NCBI GenBank assembly: GCA_041750275.1
Contig: JBGSZR010000301.1
Coordinates: 1 to 43,173, forward strand
Direction of reading: 5' to 3'
DNA length: 43,173 nucleotides
Source: Gemmataceae bacterium
GTDB taxonomy: Bacteria; Planctomycetota; Planctomycetia; Gemmatales; Gemmataceae
Shown: piece by piece, positions 32,014 through 42,141 of the stretch
How positions within the stretch are numbered: the first letter of the stretch is position 1
Layout: each line of letters starts with the position of its first letter
Program-made: the position numbers and the translations under genes
The notes under the pieces: model-generated
Databases searched by the model: none
What the model saw: only the letters and a program-made list of their open reading frames with translations
Told to the model about the DNA's origin: nothing

Positions 32014-35000
32014 TCAGCGTTTCACGATGGCGAATTTCGGCGGCTGGCGTGGGAAGCAGATGGGTGTCTGAGTGTTGCCCGGATTCAGAGCGTCCATGAG
32101 TTCGGGCACACGGTTGGAGACGTAGCGGTAAAGTTCCTCTGCGCTGAGCACGCCATCCGTGTTGCGGTCTGCGGTGCGGTACTTGTCGCCGAGAGCATCG
32201 AGGATGGCATAGGTGAAGAGCCCGTGACCGAGCTGCGGGTCTTCATAGGAAAGCTCGCTCTGGTCGCAGGCGGCGATCACGAACGGACCCTGGCCATTGG
32301 GGATGAGCCTTCGCAACAGGTTGGCATCAGCGGCACCACCCGCGTGGCAGGCATCGAGCAGCACCAGCTTCCGGCAATTGATCCCGGCCAAGGTCTTGAA
32401 CAGATCCTCGGCCGAAACGGACGTCTGCGCCACATTATTGTCCGAGTAGTCCGGGCAGCAGAAGACGAACGGTCCAGGTTCGATGACCGCGCCGCGGCTA
32501 CCCCCAGGCCCGGCCGGGCCGCGCTTGGCACCGGGCAAGTCACCGTGACCCGCGAAGAAGACCACAAGCAAATCGTCCGGCTTCACGCGCCCCTTCATCG
32601 CGGCAAGGTCTTCCAGCACTTGTTGACGCTCGGCTTCCCGATTCAGGAGTGTCTCGATTTTGCCTTCGGGGTAGTGCCGGCCTTTGCCGAGATAAGCCTT
32701 GAAGCTGGCCTGCAAATCGGTGGCGTCCTTCACGGCGTTGCGGAGATCCTGGAAACCCTTGCGGGGCGCGATGGCCGCGGCGGCAACCTGGCTATTCGCA
32801 TAGTCGTTCACACCGACCACCAGCCCGTGCAAGCTGGGCGAACCGGCCGTGTTGGGGTTACGCACCTGTTCCGTGCCCTCACCACGCCCACCGCGTGCGT
32901 TGAACGTGAGCACGGTGAACTTATTCTCCCCTTCGCGAAATGCCGAAGCGGGGATGGGCAATGCCGCGGTGAAGACCATGCGCGGATCGAGCGGCGCACC
33001 GCCCGGTTGTGGCCAGGTGGCAATGCGGTAGTCGTTCAACCACAACTCCACATGCTCGGGAAGCAAATCCGGGTTGGAACCGCGAGGCTTCACCTCGATG
33101 GTTGCAGTGACAGGGCCCTGACCCACCACCAGCGAGTCCAGGAAGACCCTGGGCGGCGCGGGTTCGAACTTGCTGAACGTGCCCGGTCGCGGATCTTCCT
33201 CGGCGAGCAATTGCAAGGCGTCGGCGACACTGCGGCTGGTCACGAGCTTTTGCAACACCGCGTACTTGTGGTAGTGGTCCTCGAACTGGTTGAACTGGTA
33301 GAAGACAGGTCGGCCATCAGCCTCGGGTGCGTTCACGTGCCAGCCGATGATGCGATCGCCGTTGGCACTCTCGGTGTGGTAATAGGAACCCTTCCACATC
33401 CAGATGACCCAGTCGGTCATGCGGCCCGCGTCGTCGAATCCGGGGAACCACTTCCAAAGTGGCCGCTGCCGCACCGTGGTGAGCGTCTCGCGGCGCGGTT
33501 TCCCGGCCGCTTCCAGGCCGAAGTACAGTTCCTTCCCAGGAATGGGGCTCTTCACCGCGGCCACGACATCACGGGCGGTGCCAAGCGGAGACTGCCCGGG
33601 GCGATGATCGAAGATGATGGTGCCACCATCGACCACGAGCAGGTCGATCACTTCACCGGCAGAGAGCCCAGCTTCCCAGGCCGGGGAACCAACGTCCACC
33701 GCGAGCACCGTGGGCTTGCCATTGGCGACCTCGATCTTCGCTCCGAGCCCGGCATTGCTCGGCCAGTCCTCCAGGCTGTATGAGGCAACGGTGTGGTCGG
33801 CACCTCCACTCACGAACCACGTCTGATCGGCTGCCGCCACGAGCGAGAGCACCGGGCCGCTGTGACCGGTGAAGAGTTTTGTGCGAGTGACGCCATCGGG
33901 CTGCAGTTCGAAGAGCGAGCAACCATAGTCGTGGCCGACCAGCAACCGTGTCGGCTTGCCATTCTTCGCGGGGATGAAGGTGAAGCAGGTGGGTGCCTGA
34001 TCGCGGCCGCGGTCGAGCGCGAGTGCGAAGCCATCGGCGGGGCCATCCTTGTGCACCGCACGCCAGACGAAGCGGCTGTGCTTATCCGGAATCACCGTCC
34101 AGCCATCGGCCGAGGCAAGCGGATCGACCCACTTCTGCCCCTCGGGGTTGCCCTTCCCCATGCGGGGAACGTTGAACGCGGTCCAGTTGCCGGTGCCGCG
34201 GGCGTTCGGGTGGTTCGCCTCGGGGTTGCGGCCGGTCTGGATGCCGAGCATGTTGCCGTTGGTCGAGAGGTTCACCGCCCAGGGCCGACGCCCGGCACCG
34301 CGCACCACGGTCAGCGGCTCCTTTGGCTTGGCGAGATCGAGCAGCGTGACCTCATCGGCATCGCCACCCGCGATGGCCAGGCGATTCTCACTGGGGTGAA
34401 AGGCGAGCGCCTCGGCCGGGCCGGTGTGGGAAAGCTTTGAGACCGGTTCGAAGGCCCCTGTCGCCGGCGGTGCCTTCGTGAGCCAGATCGTGTCGTTGCC
34501 TTCAAGGTAAAACTGGGGCTTGATGTCGCGAGCACCACCGACGCCGATGGCAAGTTCACCGTTCGCGGGGTTCACGGCGATGGCACGTGGAAAGTGGCCC
34601 TCAGGCAGGGCGAGGCGGGCGGCATTCTTGCCATCGAGCGAACGTATCAGCACGAGTGGGTCAAGGCAACCGAGCACCACGGACTGGCGGTCCGCCGTGA
34701 GTTCGGCCCGATAAACCCAGTGAGTGGCTTCCCCCGGCTGGTTCTGGTCATTGATGTCGAAGGTGCGAACGGCCGCAGGGATTGGCTTCGCGGGGTCATC
34801 GCTCAGCGGACCGGCGAGGCTCCAGAAGCCGACCTTGCCATCGAGCGAGACCGCACCGAGCGAGTCCGCGTCCGGGAAGAAGAGGAGGCGGGGATAGTTG
34901 AATTCCTCGGCAGTTTCGCCGCGTTTTGCGGGTGCGAACTTGCCCACACGCGCAGGAGAATTCCAGGTGTGGCCATCTCGTTTGGGTTCGAGCAGTTTGG

Positions 35001-35523
35001 CTGGGTCCCAGAGCCAGAGGCTGCCATCCGCTGTGCCGAAGGCGAGTCGCCGGCCATCGGGGTGGAAGGCGATGGCCATCACGGAGAAGTAGTTGTCGAT
35101 GCCGTTGCGACCGTTGGGCCAGGTCTGGGCGATGGTGTCGCCGGTCTCACGATCGACGATGGCAACCGTGGCGGGCTTCATGCCATAGCCGCCGATGGCG
35201 ACACGCTTGCCATCGGCACGGATGTCGATGGCTTTTACGCCTCCGCGCTGTTCACGCCAGGCACGCCAGCGCAAGGTCTTTGCCTGATCGAGATCGAGCC
35301 CGGCCGCGGCGTGGGGCCAGGCACGCACGACCTTGTCGTCGCCGCCTGCGAACAGGAACGCACCATCCCGGCTGAAACGCAGCACATCGCACGTGCCGAA
35401 CCGTCCGCCCGCCTCGACCACCACTTCAGGCTCATCGCGATTGCGACGATCCAGTTGCTGGGCATCCGTGAGTGGAGCGAAGCCGGCAAAGGCGATGGCA
35501 GTGAGAATCAACCGGGCAGACAT
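32014..35523 (-). CDS. Secreted WD40 β-propeller / PDZ / caspase-like (peptidase C14) multidomain protein
   Basis: 1169 aa. It has a Sec signal peptide (MSARLILTAIAFAGFAPLTDAQQ). The N-terminal roughly 500 aa are WD40-like repeats. A PDZ-like segment ('KPTVLAVDVGSPAWEAGLSAGEVIDLLV') follows. The C-terminal C14 domain retains the catalytic dyad 'VVFFAGHGD' (32541–32567) and 'LLDACHAGG' (32334–32366). Confidence 0.85.
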   Translation of the reverse strand: MSARLILTAIAFAGFAPLTDAQQLDRRNRDEPEVVVEAGGRFGTCDVLRFSRDGAFLFAGGDDKVVRAWPHAAAGLDLDQAKTLRWRAWREQRGGVKAIDIRADGKRVAIGGYGMKPATVAIVDRETGDTIAQTWPNGRNGIDNYFSVMAIAFHPDGRRLAFGTADGSLWLWDPAKLLEPKRDGHTWNSPARVGKFAPAKRGETAEEFNYPRLLFFPDADSLGAVSLDGKVGFWSLAGPLSDDPAKPIPAAVRTFDINDQNQPGEATHWVYRAELTADRQSVVLGCLDPLVLIRSLDGKNAARLALPEGHFPRAIAVNPANGELAIGVGGARDIKPQFYLEGNDTIWLTKAPPATGAFEPVSKLSHTGPAEALAFHPSENRLAIAGGDADEVTLLDLAKPKEPLTVVRGAGRRPWAVNLSTNGNMLGIQTGRNPEANHPNARGTGNWTAFNVPRMGKGNPEGQKWVDPLASADGWTVIPDKHSRFVWRAVHKDGPADGFALALDRGRDQAPTCFTFIPAKNGKPTRLLVGHDYGCSLFELQPDGVTRTKLFTGHSGPVLSLVAAADQTWFVSGGADHTVASYSLEDWPSNAGLGAKIEVANGKPTVLAVDVGSPAWEAGLSAGEVIDLLVVDGGTIIFDHRPGQSPLGTARDVVAAVKSPIPGKELYFGLEAAGKPRRETLTTVRQRPLWKWFPGFDDAGRMTDWVIWMWKGSYYHTESANGDRIIGWHVNAPEADGRPVFYQFNQFEDHYHKYAVLQKLVTSRSVADALQLLAEEDPRPGTFSKFEPAPPRVFLDSLVVGQGPVTATIEVKPRGSNPDLLPEHVELWLNDYRIATWPQPGGAPLDPRMVFTAALPIPASAFREGENKFTVLTFNARGGRGEGTEQVRNPNTAGSPSLHGLVVGVNDYANSQVAAAAIAPRKGFQDLRNAVKDATDLQASFKAYLGKGRHYPEGKIETLLNREAERQQVLEDLAAMKGRVKPDDLLVVFFAGHGDLPGAKRGPAGPGGSRGAVIEPGPFVFCCPDYSDNNVAQTSVSAEDLFKTLAGINCRKLVLLDACHAGGAADANLLRRLIPNGQGPFVIAACDQSELSYEDPQLGHGLFTYAILDALGDKYRTADRNTDGVLSAEELYRYVSNRVPELMDALNPGNTQTPICFPRQPPKFAIVKR

Positions 35524-35736
35524 GGCAACTCCAGGGAATTAAGTCAAAGAGCTACCCGGACATGCAATTCCGTCTGAGGCCGCGGACAACCTGAAGACAA
35601 GTCTGCCGCCGATCGGAAAATCAGAACGCGGATCAGCCAGCTTTAATCCAGAACCGATCCACTGTGAACGATGGACGATATCGTCTGACTCTGATCGCAA
35701 GTCGTGCTTATTCAATCGGCAGCGGCTCATCTGAGT

Positions 35737-36351
35737 TCATCGCTCATCCTGGCGTCGTTCGGCGGCAGCGGTCTCGTGGGCCAGTTCCTCGATGCGTTCG
35801 ATGACCCGGCGAATCTTGCGATCGTAGCTCTTCAGCTCCGCGGCAATCTCCGTCGTCGAGTATCCCTGCAGTCGCATCTCCAGCACCCTTCGATCAAACT
35901 CGGGCAATTGCTTCATGAAGCGTTCGAACTCATCGAGCAGCGTCACTTCCACATCGGGAGCCTGTTCGCCGGTCGAGAGTTGCTGCAGCATCTCCTGGGC
36001 GGTGGAGCCGTGGCCGCATTCCAGTTCCGGGTTGCGCTTGGCGGCCCGGTGAAAGGCGACTTGCCGGAGAGTCTTGTGCACCGTTAGCCGCACCAGCAGC
36101 TTGAAGAGATCGTTCTCGCCTTCGAAGGTGAATTCGTCGTTCTTCACACGCACAAAGAATGTGCGGAATGCCGACTGGATCACATCCTCGGGGTCCACAC
36201 GGCTCGTCATGCGCTGGCCGATGCGACGGCGAGCCAGCTTCATCAGCCGTTCGCAATATCGGTCGAAGAGCTCCGTGGCCGCGGATTCGCTCCCCTCCTT
36301 GAACATCTGGATGAGGTCGCGGTCGTCGGTCGGGTCGGGTGGTTCGGGCAT
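35737..36351 (-). CDS. ECF-type sigma-70 family sigma factor
   Basis: It is 204 aa when started at ATG 36351 (MPEPPDPTDDRDL). Region 2 is 'DPEDVIQSAFRTFFVR'. Region 4 is a helix-turn-helix, 'DRRVLEMRLQGYSTTEIAAELKSYDRKIRRV'. The longer ORF running to 36708 would overlap the divergent gene's upstream region. Confidence 0.85.
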   Translation of the reverse strand: MPEPPDPTDDRDLIQMFKEGSESAATELFDRYCERLMKLARRRIGQRMTSRVDPEDVIQSAFRTFFVRVKNDEFTFEGENDLFKLLVRLTVHKTLRQVAFHRAAKRNPELECGHGSTAQEMLQQLSTGEQAPDVEVTLLDEFERFMKQLPEFDRRVLEMRLQGYSTTEIAAELKSYDRKIRRVIERIEELAHETAAAERRQDER

Positions 36352-36505
36352 GGGTTTGGCTCGTGTGCGGGAAGGCGGCCCTGCCACAACCGCTACGATA
36401 CTCGTTGTTCCAAGCGGGGTCAAAGGGTGTTCGCACTCTGTGTGCTGCAACGACACCTGCTTCGGTATATCATGCGCAGATCGCACCCGGCAGCGGAGAG
36501 GCCTT

Positions 36506-39500
36506 ATGTCCAGCGGAACCCCCGGCGGGAACTGGCGCAATGCAGGCGGCAATCGCCCCGCCTCCAGCAGCAGCACCTCACGCCGCTCCTGGCAGCCCGG
36601 AAGCTCCACAAACAAGCCCGTGATCGGCAAGCGCCGATCACGCCTGGGCCGCTTCCTCTTCGCGGGCCTGCTTACCGGGGTCATCCTCGCCCTGATCGTG
36701 GTCGTCATTTACTACTGGCAGCCGGCGAAGTACCCCACGCTGGTCGTCGTTGGCCCGGCTGGTGGAAGTTCGCTCTCCACGATCGATAATTCCGCCGGTG
36801 TCAATGCGGCCTCGCGCCTGGCCGACTGGGCGAAAGAGGGTGATAGTCGCCCCAAACTTGCCGCCCCGGCCGCCGACACCGCGGACAAGAACGCCTGGCA
36901 AGGCAAACTCGACGGCGATGCGAAGTCGCTGGTGCTCTACTTCAGCGCACCCGGCGGCGCAGACGCCACAGGGCCGTTCCTCTGGTTCATCCCCGAGGGC
37001 GTTCGCACACCCACCGCCGACCACAAGATCTACATTCGCGACATCCTCACCCGCCTCGAAGGACTGCCGAAAGGGAAGTCGAAATTGCTCATCTTCGATG
37101 CAGCACGCCTGCGAGCGAGCGACCCGCACGGAATGCTCTTCAACGACTTCGCCCGTGCTCTCAAGGAACTCGATGCGAAGATCGATAGCATTGAGGGCCT
37201 GGTGGTCATCTGCTCTTCGGACGAGGATCAGCGTGCCTGGGATTCGGAAGAATGGCGTTCTTCCGTGTTCGGTCATTTCTTCCTGGAGGGGCTGAAGGGT
37301 GCAGGTGGCAAGCAGGCCGGTGAGCGCATTACGGCGGCCGAGTTGTTCGACTATAGCAGCGCCGAGACGGCGAAGTGGGCACTCGCGAACCGCGATGAAA
37401 AGCAGACGCCCATCCTGCTGCCTCTGGGGAAAGGCCGGGAACGAGCTGCAAAGCTCGAACTCGCCTCCGTGCCGAGCAGTGGCTTCACGGCAGCCTCACG
37501 CCCCGAAGTTCCTGCCAAGATGCCCGCCGATCTCGAGGCCGCGTGGGGCACGGCCTTCCAGCTTTCGCAGCGCGTGCCGGCACCGGACACGCTCGACCCA
37601 CTGAAGTGGCGTGAATACCTCGATCTGGTGCTGCGTTGGGAACGACTGGTGCGATTCGGCGAGAACCCGGAAGGCGTGCGGGCCAAGGCACAGTTGCTCG
37701 CGGGGCAATTGGAATTGACACATGGTGCCGCGGATCCGCCCTGCCTGCCCGTGGCGTTCCCCGCAGGCCGGGCGCTCGGTGTGCCGCTCATCAAGAGCGA
37801 TCTCGCTGCCTTCAACAAGCTCTGGGCCTCTCCGGCGGGTGCCGCCCGTGGCGATGAGTGGCTGAAACAACTCGGGCCAACTCGCGCGAACGAGACCGCC
37901 CGGCGCATCGCTGTTGCCGAGATGGTCGTCGAACGCGTGGTCAACGACGGCCCGACTTCCGAGACGCTGGCGACCGCCGACGATGTGCTGGGAACCGTGG
38001 ATGGCCCGCGTGTCGGCACGGCAGAAGCGCACTTCATCCGCATCCTGCACCGCCGGCTCGATCCCCACCCCGAATCGCGGCCCGGTGTCGACGTACTAAT
38101 CGAAGCCATCAAGCTTCGCCGCGAGGCCGAGGAGACAGCGTGGGTCTTCGGTGCGGATACAAACCAGTACCCGCATGGTGAGTCGCTGTTCCGCTGGGTC
38201 GGCCGCACGGTGCTGTCGGGTGATGCCGCACGCCGCTCGGGCGAGGATTTGCTGTTCGATGGCAATGCCGATTCCTGGAAGAAGGCGGCTGAGGTTTATT
38301 TCCCCGAAGCCCGCACCCAGTACAAGCAAGCTCGCGACCAGGCTCGCATCATCACGGCCGCGTTCACGGCCCGCGACAAGGTGCTGGCTCGCCTGCCATA
38401 CTATGCACGCTGGCTCGCCGCTTACCGCGGCCCGATTCCCCCGTCCGAAGTCGAACGGCTTCTCGGCAAGTGCGAATCGGCCGCACGCGGAGCCCACACC
38501 TTGCACGGTTTCTTCCTCGAAGACCGAGCGGATGAAGCGATTCTTGGCCAACTGGGCAACATCGATAAGCTCACGAAGAGTGTGAACGCGGACTTCGACG
38601 AAGTGGTCAAGGCCTTCGATGCCGAGGTCGGCAGCTTCGCCAACACCGTGCATCCCTCGAACTGGCACGCACTGGACAATGCATTACGTGTGCCCTTTAT
38701 CCCCGCCCGCGAACGGGCCAAGCTGCTTGGCTATGTGCGCGACATCTCGTTCCAGCTTGCCACGAAATCCGAACAACCTGGTGGTGCCGCCGCACCCGAT
38801 TTTCCCGCGCGTGATTTCGCCCAGCGCCAGGGTCGCGTTTCACTCGCACTTTTTGGCGATGATGCACCGGATCGACTTCGTGCCCTGGTGCTCACACCGA
38901 ACCCCGATGCGTGGTGGAAATCACTCCGCGAGGCCGGCGACCTTGTGGGTGGGAAGTATCAGAACCTGGCCCTCGAGATTCGCACGGAAACCACCAACGC
39001 CTCGGCGAAGCCCGAGTACCTGGATGGCGGTGCCGGCCTTCAAAAAGCAGCGTATCTCGCCCGGTTGGTCGATCCAGCCGCGGCACTTCCCATCGGTGAA
39101 GATCCGCCCGCAGCCGAGCGCCGCTTTCGCCAGCATGCCTTCCTCCTCTGGCATGCACGACGCACGGTAAACGATGGCTGGGCCAACTTGAACAGTACCG
39201 CTGCCGCCCCCTCGTGGTACTGCATGGACGCGGCGAAACTCTGCCTGGACACGGCCCGACCGCTCGCGCTTGGCACCGAGCCGAACCTGCCGCCGCTGGA
39301 GATCGAGCGCCGACTCAAAAGCCTCAACCAGGTGCAGGCACTCGGCCCAGTGATCCTTGATTTGCAGGGACCGGAGGAAAGCACCATCACCGATGCCCCG
39401 GTGTGGAATGTCGACTTCACACTCTCCCGGGCTGCGAAGGATGTGGTCGGTTTCCCGGTGTTCTGGGTGACACCGCCCGGTCCGGAACTGCTCAAAGCAG

Positions 39501-41488
39501 ACCCCACGCACCTGGGCCGCAAGTCTGAGCCGCGGCTTAGCACGCAAGAATCCGTCACGCATCGCTTGCAGTTCGCCGCGGTGCCGCAAAAAGCAGATTC
39601 CGGTGCCTCTGGGCAGTTCACCACGCGCGTGCTCTACCGTGGCCACATCTACGAGCGCACGACGGAGCTGCGGCCCACCGGCAGCCCTTCACGCACGCTC
39701 GTCTATTCGCCACCGAAGGGTGATGCGGCCTTCTATGTGATCGCGGATCGCAAGGACGTGGCCGGTGCCGTCACCATCCTGATCGACCGCAGCGACAGCA
39801 TGAAGTTGACCCCGGCGGGTGCCACGGAATCGAAGTACACCCAGGTGTGCGAGGCACTGCGCGAAATCCTCGACGACTTGCCCGAGAACACGGAGCTCAC
39901 CATCGCCGGTTTTTATGGTGAGAACCGCATCGTGCATGTGGCACCCGCAAACGGTCAAATGCCGATCACCTGGAAAGGCGGGGTGGAGCAGAAGAAGCGT
40001 GTCATGGCGGCGGTCGAAAGCATGACGCCCATCGACAACGGCATCACACCCATCGGCCTGAGTATTGAGCGGATTCTCTCGAAGGAAGGCGGAGCCGCGT
40101 TCTGGCCCAGGAATGCTTCCGGTGTGCGAACGCTCATCGTGCTGACGGATGGTGAAGACATCTCCACCGCGGCCAAGCCCGGGCACGTCGCTTTGAATGC
40201 CCTGCTCGATACCAGCGAGGACACGTCGCTGCACCTGGTGCTGTTCGCGCTGAATGCGGACCAACAAACGAAGGCCATCGATCAGTTTGACGTCACGACG
40301 CACCTGCCCACGTTCCGGGAACGCGGTCGCACGCCGGCCGTGATTTACCCGAACGTGAAGAATGCGGCAGGCATTGCCGAAAAGATTCGCGAGGCAATGC
40401 GGCCGCGCGTGAAGTATTGCCGGGAAGAGACCGCAAATGATTCGCGGGCCTGGCGAAACCTGATCGTGACACTGCCAGGCGAACCGACACGCCGTCCGTC
40501 GATCGGTGTCCCCGCTGGTGATTACTACCTCCGCGGATTGCGTGATCCCCAGAAGCTCCGACTCGAACCGGGCGACCGCGTCATCCTCACCAGCGTGGCC
40601 AGCGGCAACAAGTTCAACCTCACAGTGCCCTCATTCGCTTACGATCTCGCCGGCGATCCCAACACCGGCTGGCCACGGGCCCAGTCGAATGCCGTGCGCA
40701 TGACTCTGGAAACCACGCGATTGCGTGCTCCAGGCGGCTTCACCGATCTCGATGCCGTGGTCACGCTTGAATCCAACAGCACCCAGGCAGGTGAATATCT
40801 CCGCTTGCCGCGCCCTGCCTTCGCCTGGTTCGATGTGACTGGCCCCGATGGCAAGCCAGGCGATCCCGAGCTGCGCACCGCACTCCGCATCGAGAATCGC
40901 ACTGGCCTCGTGGCACCCGCCTGGAACCTGCAACTCACACGCTGGGATCGCAGCGTGGCCCAGGATCGCATTCGCCGCCCGACGGTCACGGGCTTCTGGA
41001 TCGAAGGCTTCCCTGCACCAGCGTACAAGTACTCGTTCGACTTGCGGGCACTCCCCACCAAGACCACGCGCATTCTTGTCGATGGCCTGCCGGTGGATGT
41101 TGCCCCGCCCACGATCGAACATGCGGGCGGCCCCGGCCTGGAAGAAGGCGATTATCTCACCCTGCGTGCCAGCTACAGTGACCCCACCCGGCCCATTCTC
41201 ATTCGCCCCGGCAAGCTGAAGGGCGTGAACCAGCGGTTCGATCTCTGCGAGCAACACCTGTACTTCGACGCTTCAGGCCGATACACGGCAAGGTTTGGCC
41301 CCATCACGGAACTCGACAAGAAGATCGGCACCGTGGAAGCCGATTTCTTCTCGGTTTCCGATCTGCGTGAGCGTGCCCGTGGGCGGGATAACGAGCCCGT
41401 GCGAGCCGTGAGCGTGAGCTACCCCGGCACGCGCCCTCTCAAAACCGGCAACCTCTCCGCACTGCTGGAGTTCGAACCCGAGAAGTGA
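36506..41488 (+). CDS. Giant single-pass membrane protein: short cytoplasmic N-terminus, TM helix, catalytically degenerate caspase-like domain, long helical region, vWA domain, C-terminal β-rich region
   Basis: It is 1660 aa from ATG 36506, with GGAGAG 6 nt upstream. The ORF in the track starting at 36074 would overlap the sigma-factor gene. The TM helix is 'LGRFLFAGLLTGVILALIVVVIYYW'. The caspase-fold strands are 'LVLYFSAPGG' and 'LLIFDAARL', then 'VVICSSDED…FGHFFLEGLKG'. The vWA MIDAS motif is 'ILIDRSDSM', followed by 'TPIGLSIE…LIVLTDGED' (about 39765–40300). Confidence 0.8.
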   Translation: MSSGTPGGNWRNAGGNRPASSSSTSRRSWQPGSSTNKPVIGKRRSRLGRFLFAGLLTGVILALIVVVIYYWQPAKYPTLVVVGPAGGSSLSTIDNSAGVNAASRLADWAKEGDSRPKLAAPAADTADKNAWQGKLDGDAKSLVLYFSAPGGADATGPFLWFIPEGVRTPTADHKIYIRDILTRLEGLPKGKSKLLIFDAARLRASDPHGMLFNDFARALKELDAKIDSIEGLVVICSSDEDQRAWDSEEWRSSVFGHFFLEGLKGAGGKQAGERITAAELFDYSSAETAKWALANRDEKQTPILLPLGKGRERAAKLELASVPSSGFTAASRPEVPAKMPADLEAAWGTAFQLSQRVPAPDTLDPLKWREYLDLVLRWERLVRFGENPEGVRAKAQLLAGQLELTHGAADPPCLPVAFPAGRALGVPLIKSDLAAFNKLWASPAGAARGDEWLKQLGPTRANETARRIAVAEMVVERVVNDGPTSETLATADDVLGTVDGPRVGTAEAHFIRILHRRLDPHPESRPGVDVLIEAIKLRREAEETAWVFGADTNQYPHGESLFRWVGRTVLSGDAARRSGEDLLFDGNADSWKKAAEVYFPEARTQYKQARDQARIITAAFTARDKVLARLPYYARWLAAYRGPIPPSEVERLLGKCESAARGAHTLHGFFLEDRADEAILGQLGNIDKLTKSVNADFDEVVKAFDAEVGSFANTVHPSNWHALDNALRVPFIPARERAKLLGYVRDISFQLATKSEQPGGAAAPDFPARDFAQRQGRVSLALFGDDAPDRLRALVLTPNPDAWWKSLREAGDLVGGKYQNLALEIRTETTNASAKPEYLDGGAGLQKAAYLARLVDPAAALPIGEDPPAAERRFRQHAFLLWHARRTVNDGWANLNSTAAAPSWYCMDAAKLCLDTARPLALGTEPNLPPLEIERRLKSLNQVQALGPVILDLQGPEESTITDAPVWNVDFTLSRAAKDVVGFPVFWVTPPGPELLKADPTHLGRKSEPRLSTQESVTHRLQFAAVPQKADSGASGQFTTRVLYRGHIYERTTELRPTGSPSRTLVYSPPKGDAAFYVIADRKDVAGAVTILIDRSDSMKLTPAGATESKYTQVCEALREILDDLPENTELTIAGFYGENRIVHVAPANGQMPITWKGGVEQKKRVMAAVESMTPIDNGITPIGLSIERILSKEGGAAFWPRNASGVRTLIVLTDGEDISTAAKPGHVALNALLDTSEDTSLHLVLFALNADQQTKAIDQFDVTTHLPTFRERGRTPAVIYPNVKNAAGIAEKIREAMRPRVKYCREETANDSRAWRNLIVTLPGEPTRRPSIGVPAGDYYLRGLRDPQKLRLEPGDRVILTSVASGNKFNLTVPSFAYDLAGDPNTGWPRAQSNAVRMTLETTRLRAPGGFTDLDAVVTLESNSTQAGEYLRLPRPAFAWFDVTGPDGKPGDPELRTALRIENRTGLVAPAWNLQLTRWDRSVAQDRIRRPTVTGFWIEGFPAPAYKYSFDLRALPTKTTRILVDGLPVDVAPPTIEHAGGPGLEEGDYLTLRASYSDPTRPILIRPGKLKGVNQRFDLCEQHLYFDASGRYTARFGPITELDKKIGTVEADFFSVSDLRERARGRDNEPVRAVSVSYPGTRPLKTGNLSALLEFEPEK

Positions 41489-41619: not shown

Positions 41620-42141
41620 TCATCCAAAGAGGAGCAGCACATTCCAGGGTGGTGTCTTCTCGAATTCACAACCCAGGATGAAATTGTCCCCTTCCTTCTT
41701 GCAACTGCGGACGATCACGGTCACGAAACCGATGTTGTCCGGAGCATTCGCAGCACGGACCTGGATGACGCTGCCGGACACCATGGCGGACGTCATGACG
41801 ATGCGGAGCCCGCCGGTGGAGCGATCGACCACCAGACCATCATTCACGCCGTTGCGAAAACTGTTCGACGAGAGCAACACACGCACCGGAGCCCCATCGC
41901 GGCGCACGGCGCCACGCCGATCCGCGTACGATTGCTCGGGCGGGGCCCAGTTCAGGGCTTTCTCTTCCTTCGAGGCGTTGGCCGCCCCCAGCGAAATCGC
42001 TGCCGCATCCAGCCCATCCCGGCGGCGACGGTTCAGGAAAAAAAGCCCAGTGAGCACGACAATGGCCACCAAGCCACCGATAGTGACGGGCAGATTGTGA
42101 AGGGCAAAAGCACGAATCGCATCGAGGTACTGCGCGAACAT
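41620..42141 (-). CDS. PilZ-domain protein with N-terminal TM helix (putative c-di-GMP receptor)
   Basis: An N-terminal TM helix (PVTIGGLVAIVVLTGLFF) is present. The two PilZ motifs, 'RRGAVRR' (RxxxR) and 'DRSTGGL' (DxSxGG), are correctly spaced. Confidence 0.68.
   Translation of the reverse strand: MFAQYLDAIRAFALHNLPVTIGGLVAIVVLTGLFFLNRRRRDGLDAAAISLGAANASKEEKALNWAPPEQSYADRRGAVRRDGAPVRVLLSSNSFRNGVNDGLVVDRSTGGLRIVMTSAMVSGSVIQVRAANAPDNIGFVTVIVRSCKKEGDNFILGCEFEKTPPWNVLLLFG

Follow-up and report, generated by a model that had tools for sequence, protein, structure and literature searches.

A predicted periplasmic caspase-fold domain without its catalytic dyad in a giant planctomycete membrane protein

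We analyzed a stretch of 43,173 nucleotides from Gemmataceae bacterium (contig JBGSZR010000301.1 of assembly GCA_041750275.1; hereafter the window), and in particular the giant gene located toward its end, which encodes a single-pass membrane protein with a caspase-like domain directly after its transmembrane (TM) helix. Structure prediction and profile comparisons confirm that this domain has a true caspase fold from which both catalytic residues have been lost and, judged by its residues, it cannot be a cysteine protease. According to the family alignments, the nucleophile was lost at the root of a large and old family of such proteins. The window copy is an intact orphan established beside a module that comprises a sigma factor gene of the extracytoplasmic function (ECF) type and the gene of a WD40-caspase. 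In our view it is probably a non-catalytic scaffold or sensor module of an envelope family, and its adjacency to an active caspase would not mark a dedicated pair. All functional statements made here rest on homology and gene order. The layout of the giant gene and of its protein is as follows:

36506-41488, plus strand: giant gene for the 1660-aa single-pass membrane protein P0272 (open reading frame and choice of start)
36506-36652, plus strand: basic, predicted cytoplasmic N-terminal tail of about 48 aa with the motif W10 ... SRRSW29QPG (positive-inside rule, alignment A5)
36653-36718, plus strand: single TM helix FLFAGLLTGVILALIVVVIYYW, residues 50-71 (hydropathy scan)
36719-37471, plus strand: pseudo-protease domain of the caspase fold, predicted periplasmic, from residue 72 to about 322, directly after the TM helix (the feature described in the original prediction is residues 75-321)
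37472-39766, plus strand: middle region of ~750 aa, mostly helical, no recognized domain, conserved across the family
39767-40285, plus strand: von Willebrand A (vWA) domain with an intact metal ion-dependent adhesion site (MIDAS), from the family profile and motifs
40286-41485, plus strand: C-terminal region, conserved in the family, no recognized domain (family alignments)

The ATG at 36506 is the real start of the gene; the listed open reading frame (ORF) opens at 36074 and its first 430 nt are antisense to the ECF sigma gene. All the caspase-like motifs quoted in the original prediction for the giant membrane protein are found in the plus-strand ORF that begins at this ATG. We infer that the N-terminus is cytoplasmic and the caspase domain lies outside, because P0001 and P0002, the relatives nearest to the window protein (64% identity by BLASTP and 67-71% in alignments), share its TM helix and dead caspase domain and carry a Ser/Thr kinase fused on the N-terminal side of these, in a PpkA-like architecture. 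The extracytoplasmic placement, which had been proposed earlier and agrees with our data, also rests on the basic N-terminal tail and on the presence of one TM helix. No kinase domain remnant was found upstream of the giant gene and the window protein has no Ser/Thr kinase domain; scanning metagenomes with the kinase-fused P0002 brought up nothing but ordinary kinases. The tail of the family carries the motif W...SRRSWQPG, whose two tryptophans, W10 (36533-36535) and W29 (36590-36592), are invariant in alignment A5 and suggest a conserved cytoplasmic binding partner. Pfam and NCBIfam revealed no anti-sigma domain in this low-complexity tail of ~48 aa. Regarding the rest of the protein, Pfam and PDB sequence searches of the middle region gave no match. 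The vWA domain bears the MIDAS motifs DRSDS (39785-39799) and TDG (40145-40153), and in the PDB the family profile matched it with BatB (3ibs; E-value = 6e-7), the Pfam VWA match being weak. On the full giant protein Pfam and NCBIfam gave only weak vWA and sub-threshold caspase matches, and neither library has a full-length or above-threshold match for the giant family.

The original prediction had taken the domain for a caspase fold, and both modeling and profile comparison bear this out at levels well above chance. AlphaFold2, run on a 29-sequence alignment of the domain (A4), gave a pLDDT of 90 and a pTM of 0.90 (a 4-sequence alignment gave a pLDDT of 52), and the top matches of a Foldseek comparison with the PDB all belong to clan CD, namely MALT1 (E-value = 1e-7), metacaspase-9, procaspase-7, legumain and GSU0716. 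The Pfam C14 model (PF00656) scored 17.7 bits on the isolated domain, below its gathering score of 21.4, and had no match on the full protein; sequence-profile searches of the PDB with the giant family found the vWA domain and no caspase. Since the library models alone were not decisive, the family was collected for profile and fold comparison. Aligned with hhalign against 80 diverse PF00656 proteins, the family profile reached a probability of 99.8% (E-value = 9.6e-28) over 213 columns, and a C14 hidden Markov model (HMM) built from 80 diverse caspase-family proteins matched the window protein with an E-value of 2.9e-14. The neighboring caspase is likewise detectable as a homologue, as hhalign of A4 against its C14 domain gave 97.7% (E-value = 2e-12) and BLASTP an E-value of 3e-4. 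Three positions of the giant gene bear on the former active site:

36950-36952, plus strand: P149, at the position of the catalytic His (hhalign, residue counts)
37097-37105, plus strand: D198-A199-A200, with A200 (37103-37105) at the position of the catalytic Cys (hhalign, residue counts)
37121-37174, plus strand: loop and helix after the former Cys, with the window-specific W206-to-D change and the family signature HGMLFNDFARALKELD (family alignment)

In every hhalign alignment the family motif 'aaHGgaD' falls on FAGHG and 'lDaTq' on DAChSG, hence in the window protein the catalytic His is substituted by P149 and the catalytic Cys by A200. Both positions had been rightly assigned in the original prediction, but part of its numbering has to be corrected. 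The His strand LVLYFSAPGG comprises residues 142-151 and is located at 36929-36958, so that the interval 36954-36968 given for it lies about 25 nt too far downstream; for the Cys strand, 37097-37111 is accurate for DAARL and not for the whole LLIFDAARL (residues 194-202), which spans 37085-37111. The downstream hallmarks VVICSSDED and FGHFFLEGLKG are located at 37202-37228 and 37268-37300, respectively, on the plus strand of the giant ORF. Invariant in the domain are D198, F215, Q300 and P302, and the family alignments hold no alternative invariant Cys, Ser, Thr or His. As no other Cys, Ser or His of the domain is invariant, no substitute dyad is seen. Additionally, W206 (37121-37123), six residues after the former Cys, is conserved in 123 of 147 aligned members and is Asp in the window protein, whose former active-site region has therefore undergone three changes (H to P, T to A and W to D). 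With the His, the Cys and the Trp lost, the window domain would be unable to cleave peptides.

The family was collected by a HMMER scan of 1.84 billion cluster representatives and comprises at least 389 clusters at 50% identity (E-value < 1e-30), nearly all of 1600-1750 aa. The scan profile carried the kinase tail of P0001 and P0002; its top matches are nevertheless true family members. The states of the dyad were read from the alignment columns of 176 members:

His position H, Cys position T: 111 of 176 members
His position H, Cys position A: 16 of 176 members
His position P, Cys position A (the window type): 9 of 176 members
His position P, Cys position T: 8 of 176 members
His position H, Cys position C: 1 of 176 members
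Other states: 31 of 176 members, including Y and T in 2

The His position thus holds His in 76% of the members, and the Cys position is occupied by Thr in 72%, by Ala in 18% and by Cys in a single one, the Pro/Ala state of the window being a 5% minority. As far as these columns indicate, the Cys had already been lost in the ancestor of a very large family, and its loss is consequently not a local event beside the neighboring caspase. Changes from Thr to Ala and from His to Pro, Ser, Asn or Gln are scattered among otherwise well-conserved full-length members, including those linked to type VI secretion systems (T6SS), of which P0273 and P0297 are H/T and P0280 is H/A. Neither former catalytic residue appears to be required in the family, since these T6SS-linked orthologues themselves vary. 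The window protein keeps 110 of the 116 family-conserved columns, the family median being 108. Pseudogene decay of the giant gene was considered and ruled out, as the ORF is intact and these columns are kept.

The loci that we compared came from species genomes and metagenomes, where a search with a close alignment gave 14 loci, and gene order across them was traced by tblastn. Three orthologues with 44-52% identity (P0297, P0280 and P0273) are encoded inside T6SS clusters, divergent from vgrG (with PAAR or DUF2169), and are followed downstream by a gene for a protein of ~880 aa, a gene for a protein of ~630 aa, a TssM-like gene, tssL (DotU) and tssK (VasE); tssA, tssB and a Ser/Thr kinase gene are also found nearby. 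The corresponding features are distributed as follows:

L016, 10001-19783, and L017, 10001-19600: three-gene module giant-880-630, usually between vgrG and tssM/tssL/tssK
L001-L003, L007-L011, L013-L015, L023 and L024: further three-gene modules
L017, 19948-21618, minus strand: gene of a TssM-like protein (homologues in L001, L002, L007, L010, L016 and L018)

The module was found together with tssM/tssL/tssK and vgrG in L001, L002, L007, L010, L016, L017, L024 and the P0280 contig, and with parts of that arrangement in L003, L008, L009, L011 and L013-L015; in the loci traced by tblastn, tssM/L/K and/or vgrG are present wherever the flank reaches. The ~880-aa protein is a paralogue of the giant, with its own TM helix at the start followed by a homologous dead caspase domain (hhalign 97.9%, E-value = 5e-13). 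This domain is more degenerate than that of the giant, and the His/Cys dyad is absent in all 11 readable copies. The ~630-aa protein carries a signal peptide and ends in a beta-sandwich of the CarboxypepD_reg type. None of the three proteins reached the cut-off of any NCBIfam model. The TssM-like protein, 556 aa long, aligns to no more of the 1168-position TssM model than positions 200-365 and stops 12 residues past its third and last TM helix, with the whole canonical periplasmic domain missing. Because the genes lie inside T6SS clusters whose TssM has no periplasmic part, the family probably builds or controls the periplasmic part of the apparatus. In the literature on T6SS in Planctomycetes, on ECF factors with WD40 proteins and on pseudo-caspases, we found neither the family nor its T6SS linkage described.

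Two further observations concern the module and its assemblies. The 880 and 630 genes share one stop-free frame in L008 (14921-19561), L009 (14740-19287), L013 (14667-19277) and L015 (14529-18875), and also in L007, L010, L011 and L014, which suggests a fusion into a protein of ~1500 aa. The long-read assemblies L001, L016, L018 and L019 contain many frameshift-split genes, which are not real truncations; the giant gene appears there in pieces and the WD40-C14 gene in two or three calls, and P0004 is a frame-shifted chimera.

The surroundings of the window copy are different from those T6SS clusters, and the genes next to it, together with the related loci, are listed here:

35737-36351, minus strand: gene of an ECF sigma factor, oriented divergently to the giant gene (PF07638, E-value = 5e-14)
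32014-35523, minus strand: WD40-PDZ-caspase gene for the secreted 1169-aa protein P0302, apparently in one operon with the sigma gene
32056-32823, minus strand: intact Peptidase_C14 domain of P0302 (Pfam E-value = 7e-12)
41620-42141, minus strand: PilZ-domain gene, convergent with the giant gene (PF07238, E-value = 2e-4)
L018, 4979-11080; L019, 7047-11308; L021, 6538-10705; L022, 6740-10891: sigma and WD40-C14 module in relatives
L020, 8002-11491: WD40-C14 gene only, no sigma gene detected

The adjoining gene had been described as that of a secreted caspase with an intact dyad, and this description is accurate. P0302 combines a signal peptide and WD40 propellers with a weak PDZ match and the C-terminal Peptidase_C14 domain, in which His993 (32545-32547) belongs to FFAGHGD and Cys1059 (32347-32349) to LLDACHAGG. 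The sigma gene is separated from the giant gene by a spacer of 154 bp and is 72-75% identical to the sigma genes of L018 (72%) and L019. Together the two genes constitute a sigma to WD40-(PDZ)-caspase module at 32014-36351 on the minus strand, and in every readable assembly (L018, L019, L021 and L022) an ECF sigma gene precedes the WD40-C14 orthologue. The module is in keeping with the known association between ECF sigma factors and WD40 proteins in Gemmataceae (PMC8567305, which cites Jogler 2012). No giant gene was found in L020-L022, where the WD40-C14 genes are located outside any T6SS cluster, and since the sigma and WD40-caspase genes are present there without the giant, we regard them as a module of its own. 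In related genomes a receptor kinase takes the position divergent from the sigma module where the window has the giant; in L018 and L020 this is a TM Ser/Thr kinase that also contains an FGE-sulfatase domain.

The sequence TTGACC-N17-TATCGT (36395-36423, minus strand) stands upstream of the sigma gene in the window, and L018 and L019 conserve the arrangement TTGACC-N17-TAnnnT upstream of their orthologous sigma genes. By its sequence this promoter looks housekeeping-type rather than autoregulated ECF-type, and no shared ECF-type promoter was found in the region between the sigma and the giant genes. On the other side of the giant gene, the PilZ gene, whose small product has an N-terminal TM segment, is established in the slot where other genomes have the ~880-aa paralogue. 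The C14 HMM, applied to all ORFs, found no intact C14 gene in the flanks (up to 10 kb) of the giant at 19 other loci, where it detected the dead domains of the giant and of the ~880-aa protein everywhere, and the adjacency of a giant and an active caspase was seen in the window only. A looser link between the caspase module and the giant is possible through shared edges of T6SS clusters in related genomes, as the module in L018 borders the tssA end of the T6SS cluster that holds the giant gene of L016, ~14 kb away, and in L019 the module is followed by tssA. The window looks like a rearranged fragment of a T6SS-type region, or like a paralogous copy divergent from the sigma gene.

According to the explanation that we favor, which takes the window copy for a scaffold or sensor module without catalysis, the caspase domain would have descended from bacterial C14 peptidases and been deprived of its nucleophile when the family arose, and the window protein would additionally have lost the His and the conserved Trp of the following loop. 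The dead domain would most likely serve as a fixed structural or binding module by the inner membrane, providing an oligomerization or peptide-docking surface. In most genomes the giant would be made together with the ~880-aa paralogue and the secreted beta-sandwich protein, and the three proteins would supply periplasmic mass or sensing to the T6SS. The adjacency to an active caspase in the window would be a lineage-specific rearrangement, the operon bordering the T6SS cluster in related genomes. We infer both the scaffold role and the T6SS function.

Several findings weigh against this explanation. No T6SS gene is present in the 43-kb window, where the core genes vgrG and tssM/L/K were not found and tblastn finds neither the ~880-aa nor the ~630-aa gene; only 1.7 kb of contig remain downstream of the giant gene. 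The T6SS role of the window copy is thus extrapolated from homologues that are 44-52% identical. The three-gene module of Zavarzinella formosa (L023, JH636441.1, 184709-209667), whose giant is annotated as a 'vWA domain-containing protein' (WP_020470993.1) and is of the Pro/Ala type, has no T6SS core genes within 10 kb, and the module may therefore not be strictly T6SS-dependent. Finally, the share of members that keep His (76%) and Thr (72%) is above the expectation from neutral drift, which means that most members may retain ligand binding or, conceivably, catalysis.

A more far-reaching reading joins these elements, and we regard it as doubtful in its entirety. The giant, the ~880-aa and the ~630-aa proteins would form a planctomycete-specific membrane-complex module of the T6SS that spans the periplasm, and the window copy would have been recruited as a sensor together with the ECF sigma factor and the WD40-caspase. 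The three-protein module would replace the periplasmic domain missing from the local TssM, and perhaps TssJ too. Near the inner membrane the two dead caspase domains would pair as caspase protomers do, with the vWA domain in contact with the outer layers. Once released from the apparatus, the window copy would be the envelope sensor of a sigma-WD40-caspase circuit that controls that system.

It is quite unlikely that the giant is instead the anti-sigma factor or signal transducer of the divergent ECF sigma factor. In such a scheme the WD40-PDZ-caspase would be the site-1 protease that cleaves the giant, and the dead caspase domain or the linker would act as substrate or decoy, followed by intramembrane cleavage and release of the sigma factor, on the model of DegS/RseA or of DdvA with the protease in trans (PMC11506125). 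The divergent orientation of the giant and sigma genes is consistent with this, and so are the single-pass, N-in topology with a conserved cytoplasmic tail and the absence of a recognizable anti-sigma gene from the sigma operon, in which the WD40-C14 protein has a signal peptide only. The gene divergent from the WD40-C14 locus in L018 and L020 is that TM Ser/Thr kinase (a sigma gene being detected only in L018), and P0001 and P0002 carry such a kinase. The tail, however, matches no anti-sigma domain, and T6SS-linked orthologues without a sigma gene in their vicinity show the same invariant motif. Furthermore, the sigma and WD40-C14 module occurs without the giant gene in L020-L022, and the sigma gene has the conserved housekeeping-type promoter with no obvious shared ECF promoter.

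The original prediction had compared the two proteins to cFLIP and caspase-8, that is, to a dedicated pair in which the dead domain would heterodimerize in the periplasm with the C14 domain of the neighbor and tune its activity. The two genes are 1 kb apart with only the sigma gene between them, both proteins are predicted to be extracytoplasmic, their domains are detectably homologous, and a giant and a WD40-C14 gene share one T6SS-flanking region in L016/L018. Nevertheless, we consider such a pair very unlikely, as the pairing is not conserved (none of the 19 other giant loci has an intact C14 gene in its flanks, and L020-L022 have the module without a giant gene) and the dead-domain family is far larger and older than the pairing, with a single one of 176 members keeping the Cys. 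The better conserved caspase-fold companion of the giant is the ~880-aa paralogue, which is missing from the window. Nor does the dead domain appear closest to the clade of the neighbor: the profile scored an E-value of 3e-17 against that clade and of 1e-27 against other bacterial C14 domains, two alignments that differ in depth. A recent duplication of the neighbor's caspase domain, considered separately, is not indicated, given 21% identity and the weaker score against that clade. The idea that the domain is still an enzyme through other residues, such as a Thr or Ser nucleophile with the His, is scarcely credible despite the frequent His and Thr and the invariant Asp two residues before the former Cys, because the window protein has neither His nor Thr at these positions (Pro/Ala), substitutions of both are scattered in well-conserved full-length members including T6SS-linked ones, the domain has no alternative invariant Ser, Cys, Thr or His, and no clan CD enzyme is known to use a Thr nucleophile.

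Pseudo-proteases of the caspase fold are well known in eukaryotes, with cFLIP and Raptor as examples. To the bacterial pseudo-orthocaspases the present family would add a dead caspase domain that is periplasmic, anchored in the membrane and the hallmark of hundreds of giant Planctomycetota proteins. The genomic contexts of the homologues point to undescribed envelope proteins associated with T6SS, in a phylum whose cell envelope is unusual and whose TssM has no periplasmic part. If true, this would show the adaptation of a contractile secretion system to the planctomycete envelope and would offer a case from bacteria in which caspase-fold domains have been put to new use as modules for structural pairing. 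For a 'bacterial cFLIP' pairing the result is mainly corrective, as conservation gives it no backing.

Comparison with known systems sets the giant apart from each of them in some respect. cFLIP is a recent paralogue of its caspase-8 partner and acts by heterodimerization. Like cFLIP(L), the giant carries an inactive protease-like domain, but it shows neither conserved co-occurrence with an active caspase nor special relatedness to its neighbor. The caspase-like domain of Raptor/Kog1 is also a pseudo-caspase scaffold, in this case eukaryotic, cytosolic and part of TORC1; it shares the fold with the giant and no sequence relationship beyond it. Regarding bacterial regulators, the giant resembles DdvA in being predicted single-pass and N-in, in its large periplasmic helical and caspase-fold region (helical-repeat in DdvA) and in lying beside an ECF sigma gene, the last being its anti-sigma-like feature, which is not conserved in other loci. 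DdvA, in contrast, has a zinc-binding anti-sigma domain and a His-Cys dyad, neither of which the giant has, and its caspase module is C-terminal to the TPR region, whereas that of the giant directly follows the TM helix.

Bacterial pseudo-orthocaspases, as the abstract describes them, have Tyr and Ser in place of the His and Cys (Klemencic et al., 2019; PMC6426788). The giant's domain would share with them the prokaryotic, C14-derived p20-like domain with a substituted dyad and presumably lost proteolysis (PMC6426788). It differs from that abstract description in the residues themselves, which are typically His/Thr in the family and Pro/Ala in the window, and, set beside those proteins, it is predicted periplasmic, fused to a TM helix, a helical region of ~750 aa and a vWA domain, with homologues in T6SS clusters.

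Among components of T6SS, PpkA of the H1-T6SS of Pseudomonas aeruginosa has a Ser/Thr kinase linked by a TM helix to a vWA domain in the periplasm (PMC3224232). Similarly, the giant family is encoded in T6SS clusters and is predicted to be single-pass with a periplasmic vWA domain, and P0001 and P0002 even share the N-terminal kinase. Unlike PpkA, the giant of the window has no kinase and its periplasmic part, of ~1600 aa, contains a dead caspase domain; the homology seen between the two extends no further than the generic vWA and kinase folds. By analogy, PpkA would be the nearest functional counterpart of the kinase-fused variants. As for TssM (IcmF), Pfam and PDB profile searches revealed no sequence similarity of the giant to its periplasmic domain. 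The homologues of the giant are nevertheless encoded beside tssM/tssL and have a large periplasmic mass of the kind missing from the local 556-aa TssM, and we hypothesize that the giant family could substitute for the periplasmic domain of TssM.

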